64,000 nt of DNA from Leucoraja erinacea (lineage: Eukaryota): positions 23,870,001 to 23,934,000 of the forward strand of contig NC_073378.1 of NCBI RefSeq assembly GCF_028641065.1, written 5' to 3'. Shown in pieces: positions 6,122 to 10,021 of this stretch. Under the pieces are notes generated by a model. It saw only the letters and a list, made by a program, of their open reading frames with translations. It did no database searches and was not told where the DNA came from. Numbering within the stretch: the stretch's first letter is position 1; the number at the start of each line of letters is the position of its first letter. The position numbers and the translations under genes are program-made.

Positions 6122-6447
6122 CCTTAGCGACTTGAAACGCTAACGGCAGGTACTCGGGAAACGTGTTAACTCGTGAAAAATTTTCAACATGTTGAAAGAT
6201 TTCCACGAGTCAAATGTACTCTTGAATGAAACATTTAAAACTTTTAAACTCGTTGTAATAGCGTAGTAGCCCGTGAGTTTACCATAGTGACTTGTGAGTA
6301 ACTTGTGGGTTTGGCCTGAGTGCCTGAAGTGAAATGTTGAAAATTAGTCAGATCTTAATGGAAAATTTTACAGTGATCTAACAATTCATTTTCAGTGAGT
6401 AATGCCTTTCAATGATTGCTGCCAGACCTTGAACATATGCAGTTCAA

Positions 6448-8711
6448 ATGGACACCCGTTGCCTTAGCACAGCATGGCTTTTAGTATTACTAACTCCAAG
6501 GGAAGGGCACGGATCAGTTTTAGTGATGCAGCTCAATGGGGTCAAACTCGACCAGGTTCTCCAGCCACAGGAGCTTCGCCTACGGGGAAGCATCCATACC
6601 CTGTGCCGAGATACAGATGGCTACCGACCGGGTTAGGGTGACTGAGGGCAGGCGGGTGTGTTTAACCTGTAAGGGGGATGTTCCTTTGGGGAGATGGTGG
6701 TGGCTCAGGAAGCTGAGCTCGGACATGAGGGATCGATCCTCGGACTGGGAAAGACTGGACAATGATACCTACCGGACCATCACGGGGTCACCGGGAGGGA
6801 TCACTGTATGTTGGGACAAATGGTTGGCCTATGACCAGGGGCTTTATTTATGTCTATGAGGGTCTGCCAAGGTGTGTCCGGTAGGGGTATCAATAACTTT
6901 CGTCAAGTGGTGGCAAGACCCCGGGAATGGGATAGATTGGGACCGCAGTGGGCAGGCATGTGTGGCCCCCAGGACTGGGATGACAGTAAAAGCAACCGAA
7001 TTGCTGGTTCAGGTGAAGAAGCCCCTACCCACAGCCCAACCGATCGACCCTCACAACTGTCCAACCACCACCAAAGGGCCGGAGAATGGGTTAGCATTTG
7101 TCCCAACCAAAAGGGTGCTGTACCAGGGAGTGCATTACGCTGTGGCCTCAGTAGTATTAAATTTGACTGAAGTGCGGTTACCCGCATGGTGTCCCCGTGA
7201 GACGGAATTATTATATCAGGCCCTGCTAAAAGACATGTTCCAGAAATTCCACAACCTGGATTTTGGGGACATAGACATTGAAGAGATGTACCGCGGGGGA
7301 GGGGATTTCACTTTGGGGTCCGGTAGGCAAAGACGAGGGGTGGTTAACGACGGGTTTACAGCATTTAACACGGGGACGTCTATTATTAATAGCATGGACA
7401 ACGTAGAACTGGCCTTGCAGATCAATCAGTTGAAGGGCCAGTTACGAAAGGTTCTGGGGGAGGAAAATGCGGTGGTAGGATCGGGACTGCACGAAGAGGT
7501 GGCAATGACTCTACATCTAAAAGAAATCATAGCACAATTGGAGACACATGCAAAAACGATAAACGCTTTGATTAAAGAGGACCGGAATGCATCCGATCAG
7601 GCTGCACAGAATGAGGTGTGTGGGCCGTATGGGCCGTATGGTGCGTGGTTGTTGGGGGAGGGGAGGAGCAACCTGGAAGACCTGAGGCAAGGTCGGGTCC
7701 CCTCCTGGATAAGCAACCAGCACCTAGCAGCGCTACACCCTTATAACAGCACTTTGAGTCCTTGTCAGCTTCGTGTGGCTTCCGAGGCCTACCCGGTACC
7801 GGTGGATTGCGGAAAATCCAATCACACCATAATGGGAGTGGTCGTAAGAATCCCGGTGATGGGAACCTCGGCACGACCAGCTCCTCTGTACCGAGTGGAG
7901 AACGTGGGAGTTGTTCGTGGGGGGGGTGCATATTCGCTACGGGAAGGTCCCGCCCTATGTCATAGTGAGGGAGCAAGCTGTGACAGGCATTGACCTTTTG
8001 GGTTGTCGGAGCCGGGGAGCACAGGTAATCCTGTGTCCCCAGCACATGGGCGCTGAGGCTAGGCCTCAGTGTGGGTTCAGGACTGTTGGGGCACAGCCTA
8101 TAAACTGCACCATGGAGGCGATGGCAGCAGACCATGTCCCTCCACAGGTGGTGTATATAGGCAGTGGGACGTACTGTGTCACCACAAGTGCCCAGCGGTA
8201 TCAGCACGGATCACAGCTGTGGTGCCCGATACTGCACAGCAGCTTCTGCTTTAAACCCAGGGCAGAAGTCCATGTGGCACAGCAGCGAATATTACCCATC
8301 CCGGAACCTTCTTCGGTTCACCTCTCGGTACGAGAAAATGTAACTGACTTATTTAACTATGTTGCCCATTTTGGGTATGATATTCCCCCAGTGAATGAAA
8401 AATTAAAAGAGTTGCTGGTGGCGGTCGAGTTGTCGCACAAACACTTCTTCTCCCTGGAACAAAAGACTCTGGATATCGCCAGGGAGATCGAAGAGATCAA
8501 GTCTCCAAGTTGGTGGGACCTGGAGTCCTGGATCATAGTTCCAGCATGGGTCCGCATCGTGTCCCATGTTCTGATCATCTGCCAGATGATAATTGTGCTG
8601 TATTTGCTATGCATTAATTGCAAATTTAAAAGGCGGAGGAGGATGGCCAAATTACAACAGCTGGTAAATCGAGCCGCCCGATGTCACCATAACGACACCC
8701 CATCACTGTAA
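6448..8711 (+). pseudogene. env: Endogenous viral envelope / class I fusion glycoprotein gene (F-protein-like) with N-terminal Ig-like domain; about 750 aa when reconstructed, 3 lesions in the assembly
   Basis: Stitched from ORFs 6448..6636 (signal peptide MDTRCLSTAWLLVLLTPREGHG), 6536..6859 plus 6872..7993 (same frame, single TGA at 6857-6859) and 7911..8711 (frameshift at the G8 run 7919-7926). Furin site RQRR (7325-7336) then fusion peptide GVVNDGFTAFNTGTSII, HR1 (LALQINQLKGQLRKVL..LKEIIAQLETHAKTINAL), Cys-rich region, HR2 (VNEKLKELL..LDIAREIEEIK), Trp-rich MPER SWWDLESW, TM and KFKRRRR stop-transfer; several NxS/T sequons. Confidence 0.85.
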
Positions 8712-8872: not shown

Positions 8873-9794
8873 TTTCGGGGTACATAATTTCACCTTCTCA
8901 CCAGGAGTGTTTACAGCTCTTGAGGCTGGAGGATTGCCCACTAACTTTGTCAATCGATACGGTCCGTGCAAGCCTGGACGTATCGTAGGGGCATGTAAGT
9001 TATTGGGGCAAATCCTCCAAAATCATGGAAGAACTCGGATAAGGACATGGACATTTTAAAAAGACAAATTTGCTGGCTGCAACGGAATAACCCCCAATCC
9101 ACAAACCTGTCTGGCATGTGGACTTGCGCATCAAACAACTGGGCGAATGGTGTGGGGAGGAAAGGCTGAGACGGAGATAACGAGGTTATCTTGGATACAC
9201 AAAGGAAGGAACCAAGTCTCAGCAGGATGACCCATCCATCGAGACAATAGGAGCCCGTCCAGACGATGGGATAACGATCAGGCTGAGGGATCATGACATC
9301 AGCAAGCCCCTTATCATCGGAAGCCTATTGTTCATGCCAGATCGAAACTGGGTATCATCAAAAGAACCCTGTTCATCCAGAGGACCACCTGGGGGTTTCA
9401 AAGAAAGCTCAGGTATAAAACAGTAGTCAAGCCAGAACTCTTTCTCTCTTTCTTCCTGCTCTGCTGGACGGCTCGTGAGCCCAAACTGTAAGTATCCCAG
9501 TGACCTGGTGAAATTCCCGAAATAGGATAGCATTGTTGAGATAAAGGGGGGAGTGGTTGTACTTGCAAGTAAAAGTGTGTAAAGTAAGTTTTACGACGTG
9601 CCCGATAGTTTTTCGTCCATAGTCTTAGTTTAAAGCGTAAGTTTAGCCACGTATTATGTAGTGTTGGTGAGATTCGATTTCTCATTGTTTAATAAAGCCT
9701 TTAAATCTTAGACTTGCTTTGAGTCCATCTTGGTTTCTGTTTTCCCTCATCAGCACACTCTGGTCAATTCAACCTTTTATCATATTCCACCATA
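8873..9794 (+). mobile_element. Putative retroviral LTR downstream of env (about 0.9 kb; boundaries approximate)
   Basis: Short purine tract AAGGGGG at 8865-8871; TATAAAA at 9414-9420; pyrimidine-rich R-like start at about 9440; donor CT|GTAAGT at 9488; AATAAA at 9691-9696; T-rich U5-like segment ending TTCCACCATA at about 9794. No second LTR in the window to confirm the ends. Confidence 0.55.
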
Positions 9795-10021
9795 ATTCCG
9801 AGGTCTAGAACCTGGGGGAATCCCTTTTGTTGTATTCTCCCTCTTGGAAACCGCTCGAGTGGATTGGTGGCCGTTTGACCCTCTGACAAGGGAGAGAATA
9901 ACTCGGGCAGTTGGGCCCGAAGTGAAATAAAGGGAAAGGCAAAACCCCTACAGCTGGAGAGTCTTGCATGAATGTTGAGAACAATCTGGCACTGTGTGAA
10001 CGGTGAGGAGAGTCTATATAA

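Follow-up and report, generated by a model that had tools for sequence, protein, structure and literature searches.

A predicted immunoglobulin-like head on an F-type Env of a skate endogenous retrovirus

We suggest that a family of endogenous retroviruses in the skate Leucoraja erinacea encodes an envelope protein (Env) in which a proline-rich linker connects a predicted immunoglobulin (Ig) head, likely to bind a receptor, with an F-type fusion core. We consider this reading reasonably probable. F-type fusogens normally lack an Ig domain, and paramyxoviruses attach via a separate protein. The Env was recognised in a window of 64,000 nucleotides, i.e. the whole stretch of DNA that was analysed, and the copy present there is a dead, broken endogenous retrovirus of a multi-copy family. 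Its features, in window coordinates, are the following:

6537..8711, + strand: remnant of the env gene of an LTR retrovirus-like element, 5'-truncated (signal peptide missing), with one internal stop and one frame change
6611..6910, + strand: predicted Ig-fold domain with strands A, A', B, C, D, E and F (G presumed), from AlphaFold2 strands on a homologous natural copy, VIA, ESM and Pfam Ig_3
6659..6661, + strand: extra B-strand Cys, in 14 of 16 copies; its putative partner is the extra E-strand Cys at 6809-6811 (17 of 17 copies)
6668..6670, + strand: canonical B-strand Cys, in 16 of 16 covering copies and in family homologs
6701..6703, + strand: C-strand Trp, in 16 of 16 copies and nearly invariant in alignment A2
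6833..6853, + strand: F-strand D-x-G-x-Y-x-C motif, from a pattern search and the copies
6857..6859, + strand: premature TGA, seen in no other copy (1 of 17) and absent from the covering contigs in four of four public runs
7016..7081, + strand: proline-rich linker into the conserved Cys-Pro...Gly-Pro start of the F2-like subunit; the F fold begins at the equivalent residue (~188) of homolog P0021
7058..8546, + strand: ectodomain of a predicted F-type (paramyxo-/pneumovirus-like) fusogen, from a profile match to PDB F0 and a homolog model compared with RSV F
7325..7336, + strand: RQRR furin-type cleavage motif, from the sequence, with a basic motif at the same column in relatives and a segment in fusion-peptide position next to it
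8547..8621, + strand: transmembrane (TM) segment, from the sequence; behind it, a short, basic cytoplasmic tail extends to 8711
8993..9953, + strand: 3' LTR of ~1 kb, TG...CA, matching both LTRs of the copy on contig C1

The initial annotation described the Ig segment as in frame with the fusion protein apart from one TGA. The TGA is there and separates the Ig motifs from an ORF in the same frame (6860-7993), but the gene is also truncated at its 5' end and changes frame near a G run at ~7918-7927, with the TM anchor and the remaining ectodomain encoded by a second ORF (7860-8711). A DNA search of the skate's own genome (2.19 Gb; the best 40 of 149 candidates were scored) gave 41 rows including the window itself. 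Among the matches listed, 13 other full-span copies match the window from exactly 6537 onward with 92-98% DNA identity, three are partial copies, 16 match only downstream of the head, and eight match only 6400-6537. Because the viral copies diverge from the window at 6537 and an unrelated repeat adjoins it there, we place the 5' truncation at this position. The adjoining 6400-6537 segment is a separate dispersed repeat, to which the eight listed matches elsewhere belong. An ATG at 6449 followed by a hydrophobic stretch was considered as the Env signal peptide and rejected as chance mimicry inside this repeat, upstream of the point where the viral copies diverge.

All motifs claimed for the Ig segment were located, and they lie in one plus-strand frame: VRVTEG (6632-6649), CLTC (6659-6670), WWWLRK (6695-6712), ITVCW (6800-6814) and DQGLYLC (6833-6853). 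The codons of the canonical cysteines, at 6668 and 6851, have the stated spacing of 61, which is within the 55-75 range of Ig domains, and both cysteines and the Trp are retained in every copy that covers them. Across all six frames of the window, there is a single match to the pattern C-x(8-16)-W-x(35-65)-D-x-G-x-Y-x-C; of 100 locally shuffled windows, one has a match. The domain had been placed at 6632..6900; the location holds, while the extent is wider, ~6611-6910 from the A to the G strand. It had also been proposed that an extra Cys pair could bridge the B and E strands. This pair is retained, is present in all five family rows (P0002, P0003, P0007, P0008 and L050) and, by the strand register of the model, its two members face each other across strands B and E; a B-E disulfide is, therefore, likely, with the bond itself deduced from this register.

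A model of the head was calculated with AlphaFold2 from 13 sequences over 203 residues of a homologous natural copy. Confidence in this model is low (mean pLDDT 50.8, core blocks 54-73, no residue at or above 90, the five models ranging from 35 to 51), and its strands fall on the motif positions. In a VIA structure search with this model, all 50 listed rows are entries with Ig-superfamily domains; the best match (Z 9.5, rmsd 2.6, 86 residues) is modestly above the Z of 7-8 that is typical of unrelated models, and identity to solved Ig domains is 7-20%. The PDB rows from Foldseek are mostly V domains (antibody, TCR, CD8) and none reaches E 0.001. In ESM features, the head lies among I-set and V-set clusters (0.91-0.93), below three unnamed clusters (0.93-0.95). 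Among Pfam families, Ig_3 ranks first for the window segment (E 0.081), P0002 (E 0.0027), P0010 (E 0.0085), P0007 (E 0.58) and L050 (E 0.3), and never reaches its cut-off, with 18.6 bits at best and 13.9 for the window segment against the 30 required; it gave no match in P0003 or in the long ORFs, and phmmer of the head against PDB gave none either. The subtype signals differ, with VIA favoring I-set, Foldseek V domains and ESM both.

The rows listed by VIA are all Ig-superfamily entries while the profile search stayed below its cut-off, and the suggested Ig beta-sandwich is supported on a low-confidence model. Because four partly independent signals agree, namely the motif spacing, Pfam Ig_3 as the top family in five family sequences, the ESM features and the structure searches, we consider it very probable that the head has an Ig fold. 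If the segment were instead a beta-rich viral domain that mimics Ig motifs, with the Ig call produced by a weak model, then the low pLDDT, the sub-threshold Pfam scores and the lack of a sequence match in PDB would be accounted for. The agreement between the four signals, and a strand order that fits the motif positions, argue against this explanation and make it very unlikely.

The suggestion that the downstream part is an F-type fusogen is borne out by a profile match and by a homolog model. With a profile of 30 rows, the best PDB matches are two F0 glycoproteins in two colinear segments (E 0.046 and 0.22); Pfam PF00523 gave no match in the family Env sequences. A profile from alignment A2 found zinc fingers only in PDB and was discarded as an artefact of a chimeric row. 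The core was modelled on P0021, a full-length natural homolog (27% identical, E 1.9e-17), and not on the family's own protein. Most core blocks of the P0021 model have a pLDDT of 70-93, while its head is below 50, and the core matches the F proteins of RSV, hPIV3, NDV, Nipah virus and hMPV (Foldseek E 8.6e-11 to RSV/paramyxovirus F; VIA Z 10.7); the VIA Z of the model to foamy virus Env is 8.0. Since the F alignment starts at P0021 residue ~188, the head appears as an addition ahead of a complete F fold. A signal peptide, a furin site and a C-terminal TM anchor can be read from the sequence of the family Envs.

The head is part of the Env reading frame outside the window. Seven of the 13 other full-span copies have no stop and no frameshift from the Ig start into F2, and in natural copies the signal peptide, the Ig segment and F2 form one reading frame. 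Near-identical DNA is present in public runs of four organisms, and in two of these runs a single gap-free contig extends from Ig to F2; no RNA was found among the listed public holders of near-identical DNA. Protein homologs with the same head were found in Rhinoraja, Pristiophorus and Rhincodon and in further contigs, and every named close homolog comes from a skate or a shark. In other words, the segment is contiguous with env in other copies and in other species, as the proposed Ig-F chimera demands. Compared with the skate and shark homologs, identity is 48-82 of ~101 residues in the Ig segment, 55-59 of 87-89 in F2 and 16-27 of 37-48 in the linker. By these counts, constraint on the Ig segment is about equal to that on the fusogen and stronger than that on the linker. 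Within the genome, pN/pS of the Ig segment is 0.46 for singletons and 0.69 for shared variants, on counts too small to be informative.

On contig C1 lies a copy with gag, integrase, env and a pair of ~1 kb LTRs that are 95.6-98.1% alike, and the protease, reverse transcriptase (RT) and RNase H were found in other copies; the order LTR-gag-pro-RT-RNaseH-IN-env-LTR was pieced together across copies. RNase H is recognised by Pfam and a tether-like ORF by eye only; a tether plus RH (dual RNase H) is common to all retroviruses. The primer-binding site (PBS) is complementary to tRNA-Arg 3' ends present in the genome, and tRNA-Arg is also used by snakehead retrovirus (SnRV). One such sequence, L059:1431-1523, is tRNA-Arg-like with an insertion in the anticodon arm; its 3' end is an exact PBS match, and ARAGORN calls it Gly.

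In a ranking of RT matches in PDB, foamy virus (165 bits) precedes MLV-type (140) and Ty3 (104). Judged by eye, the RT has LDISNGFWSI, LPQGFH.SP.IFHQ, QYVDDILL and KINPKK in common with the SnRV row in the available part of the supplement of Wang and Han, and the Loki-Pma and Loki-Aro rows there read PFGY(.NSP) where the element reads LPQGF, a comparison likewise made by eye. On these RT motifs, the element is likely SnRV-like (clade Huo of PMC6001957) and not a lokiretrovirus. According to the accessible parts of the respective papers, SnRV-like endogenous retroviruses are known in elephant shark (PMC6001957, PMC4422223, PMC12193657) and no lokiretrovirus was reported in three chondrichthyan genomes (PMC7947760). 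The organization LTR-gag-pol-env-LTR with a tRNA PBS, here tRNA-Arg, is also that of SnRV and clade Huo, as far as the available descriptions go. By contrast, in the parts of Xu et al. (PMC6001957), Han (PMC4422223) and PMC12193657 at hand, neither an Ig domain nor an F-type fold is mentioned for the SnRV/clade Huo Env.

Despite its RT, the element has an Env that works like that of lokiretroviruses. In the available part of PMC7947760, the latter also have an env with an F0-like fusogen, a furin site, a TM anchor and a PGP/GP...G start of F2; their pol has RNase H and a tether-like region, to which the ORF recognised here by eye may correspond. However, seven of the eight published lokiretrovirus Env rows in this material have no N-terminal head, and their F2 follows straight on the signal peptide; the remaining row is a C-terminal fragment. 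The foamy virus Env, as described in the accessible part of PMC11468914, similarly combines an F-like core with a built-in receptor-binding domain (RBD) and has no separate attachment protein, but its RBD is inserted inside the surface subunit, whereas the skate head precedes the entire F fold at the N-terminus and displays canonical Ig motifs. The same portion of that source assigns an Ig-type fold to the internal domain II of F; this domain is part of the core, and the skate head is additional to it. Similar in layout are the gamma-type Envs with RBD-C or SIRP-like RBD-C (Hotzel, bioRxiv 10.1101/2024.03.17.585361), which, in the available part of the preprint, have an N-terminal Ig-like head and a proline-rich linker, exchange heads between lineages and, in one class, have the canonical B-F disulfide plus an extra one. 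These Envs have an orthoretroviral gamma-type core and a recognisable SIRP donor, while the skate element has an F-type core and no donor was found for it. Finally, paramyxovirus and pneumovirus F proteins resemble the skate Env in the fold of the fusion core and differ in relying on a separate attachment protein.

A HMMER search of 1.84 billion representatives gave 35 matches, in which distant full-length Envs have a common core and different heads. Among seven Envs compared, every pair of cores is similar (z 8-107), while head pairs from different lineages score z -1.1 to 3.2; a second comparison agrees. By sequence comparison, the head slot appears to be exchangeable, with at least five sequence-unrelated heads on homologous cores. 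Three heads of the distant Envs look Ig-like: that of P0021 by an automatic UniRef name, that of P0035 by a V-set match (E 0.045) and that of P0036 by eye. In the sister lineage, with a core that is ~30-35% identical, head similarity is z 0.0 and the head has no atlas match (P0012). A core tree of 15 rows (unrooted and with long branches flagged) has Ig-type heads on both sides of a 100/99 split, and this distribution fits repeated exchange or one old origin followed by fast divergence.

Several of these distant Envs are of interest in their own right. P0035, from a Logan contig, is a 749-aa Env with a V-set-like head that lacks the canonical cysteines (Pfam V-set E 0.045); by eye, we take this head to resemble CEACAM/CD2, and P0035 is the best candidate for tracing a host donor. 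P0036 and its cluster (Mantella aurantiaca) are 677-aa Envs with the same core type and, by eye, a different Ig-like head; the cluster has 16 members, with 677 aa in 12 of the 15 listed, which suggests a recently expanded frog endogenous retrovirus. P0012, P0019 and P0024 (Mustelus, Pristiophorus and Chiloscyllium) form a related Env lineage with a cysteine-rich head.

Intact Envs of 739-754 aa with a putative Ig-like head, so named automatically by UniRef for P0021, and an F core are present in Chiloscyllium punctatum (P0021), Scyliorhinus torazame (P0054) and Heterodontus francisci (P0055). The accessions of this conserved gene comprise GCC29952.1, XP_067889054.1 and XP_072333160.1. The three Envs are 85-88% identical (627/739, 631/739 and 662/754) across three shark orders, and the split of these orders is very old, ~200 million years. 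Further homolog searches, each covering at most 8000 candidates, gave P0021 and P0054 among the matches listed, and the range of the gene is a lower bound. On this conservation of sequence, the putative Ig-F env gene of sharks has likely been domesticated. A close match of it was not found in the skate genome, where the best matches have 23-40% identity. We put forward a broader reading only tentatively and regard it as possible rather than probable: SnRV-like retroviruses of cartilaginous fishes and amphibians would represent an unrecognised Env class with an F-type core and an exchangeable N-terminal head repeatedly filled by Ig domains from host adhesion or immune receptors, and one Ig-F Env would have been domesticated prior to the divergence of the three shark orders and have persisted intact as a host gene since then, making it a candidate syncytin-like fusogen or entry-restriction factor.

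The search for the closest host Ig donor, by which a captured host domain could be traced, came up empty in the skate's own genome: apart from viral copies, it gave no match at E < 1, and the three weak matches have no Ig exon and amount to noise; such searches miss distant donors. None of the 35 HMMER matches is a host donor either.

In the model that we favor, the RQRR site would be cleaved by furin, and the head would stay on the F2-like surface subunit. The three heads of a trimer would then engage a receptor on the cell surface, probably a glycan or a further member of the Ig superfamily, and receptor binding would tether or trigger the F core. The head would, in this way, replace the separate attachment protein of the paramyxovirus type. 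Because retroviruses possess only one env gene and lack a separate HN, H or G protein, attachment must be either built in or done by the core. Binding and triggering by the head are suggested by where it sits, by its proline-rich linker, by the apparent exchangeability of the slot and by precedent. Receptor heads exposed during entry often vary faster than the core; the skate head varies no faster than the core within the family, and this slow change counts against the proposal. So do the lokiretrovirus Envs of the available published rows, because being headless in seven of eight cases they indicate that an F core can do without a head.

These headless Envs would suit a scenario in which the F core binds cells itself and the Ig domain serves to modulate immunity or to shield the Env, as a receptor decoy, a mimic of a CD200-, CD2- or SIRP-type ligand or a steric cap. 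The weak V-set match of the P0035 head, with its CEACAM/CD2-like look, and the top BFVD rows for the skate head, which include herpesvirus and poxvirus Ig-like membrane proteins and one CD200-like protein, point in the same direction. However, all BFVD rows have E > 0.03, are not significant and reflect the common fold only, and the position of the head and its proline-rich linker copy the layout of the gamma-type Env RBD, as given in the accessible part of the preprint on the latter. We consider a shielding or decoy role unlikely. Alternatively, the domain could be a structural or folding extension of the F2-like subunit that caps and stabilises the trimer, with a single ancient origin and subsequent divergence rather than an exchangeable binding head. 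A single ancient origin fits the core tree, in which the best-supported split has Ig-like heads on either side; moreover, several heads show, by eye, a C-x-x-C-like pattern in strand B, and head and F2 are similarly conserved within the family. That the sister lineage has a head with no detectable similarity and no atlas match, that the P0035 head lacks the canonical cysteines and that F folds are complete without a head all argue against a structural cap, which we regard as fairly unlikely.

The initial annotation raised the possibility that an Ig-F Env is undescribed. This can be upheld for the combination, while its parts have precedents in the accessible portions of published work: F-like Envs in lokiretroviruses (Wang and Han, PMC7947760), a built-in RBD on the F-like foamy virus Env (PMC11468914), and an Ig-like RBD with a proline-rich region, RBD exchange and a captured SIRP-like IgV on gamma-type Env (Hotzel, bioRxiv 2024.03.17.585361). 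Literature searches, some of them swamped by unrelated words, brought up no paper that describes an F-type retroviral Env with an Ig head or the conserved shark env gene, and a prior description is possible. The word 'immunoglobulin' is absent from the main text of PMC7947760, PMC4422223, PMC12193657, PMC13709493 and bioRxiv 2023.10.26.564294. If the favored model is correct, an Ig-plus-F Env encoded by a single gene would be a third solution to attachment, beside the partner protein of paramyxoviruses and the inserted RBD of foamy viruses, and the gammaretrovirus design of Ig head, proline linker and fusion core would have arisen on an unrelated core. The findings also extend F-like Envs to a lineage with an SnRV-looking RT, which bears on the question of which Env the first retroviruses had, and through the intact, conserved gene of sharks, the domestication of Envs outside bony vertebrates can be approached directly.

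The skate genome also holds variants of the element. Copies without the Ig segment were considered as a spliced or functional short Env, and this was rejected, as the three examined have one common junction that is out of frame and without GT-AG ends, with a net loss of 731 nt. L018-L020 and run X5 represent an amplified deletion derivative that has lost the head and part of F2 at a single shared junction; it is likely a non-autonomous element copied in trans. In L026, L027, L028, L031, L032 and L034, a pol deletion joins the start of the protease to the end of RNase H, with loss of RT. The gag region of L021 begins with a long coiled-coil ORF that recalls the smc-like gene reported for some lokiretroviruses. 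A second Env subfamily, ~50% identical and close to the Rhinoraja proteins, is represented by L050/L069 (G000:C9) and L070 (G000:C6).
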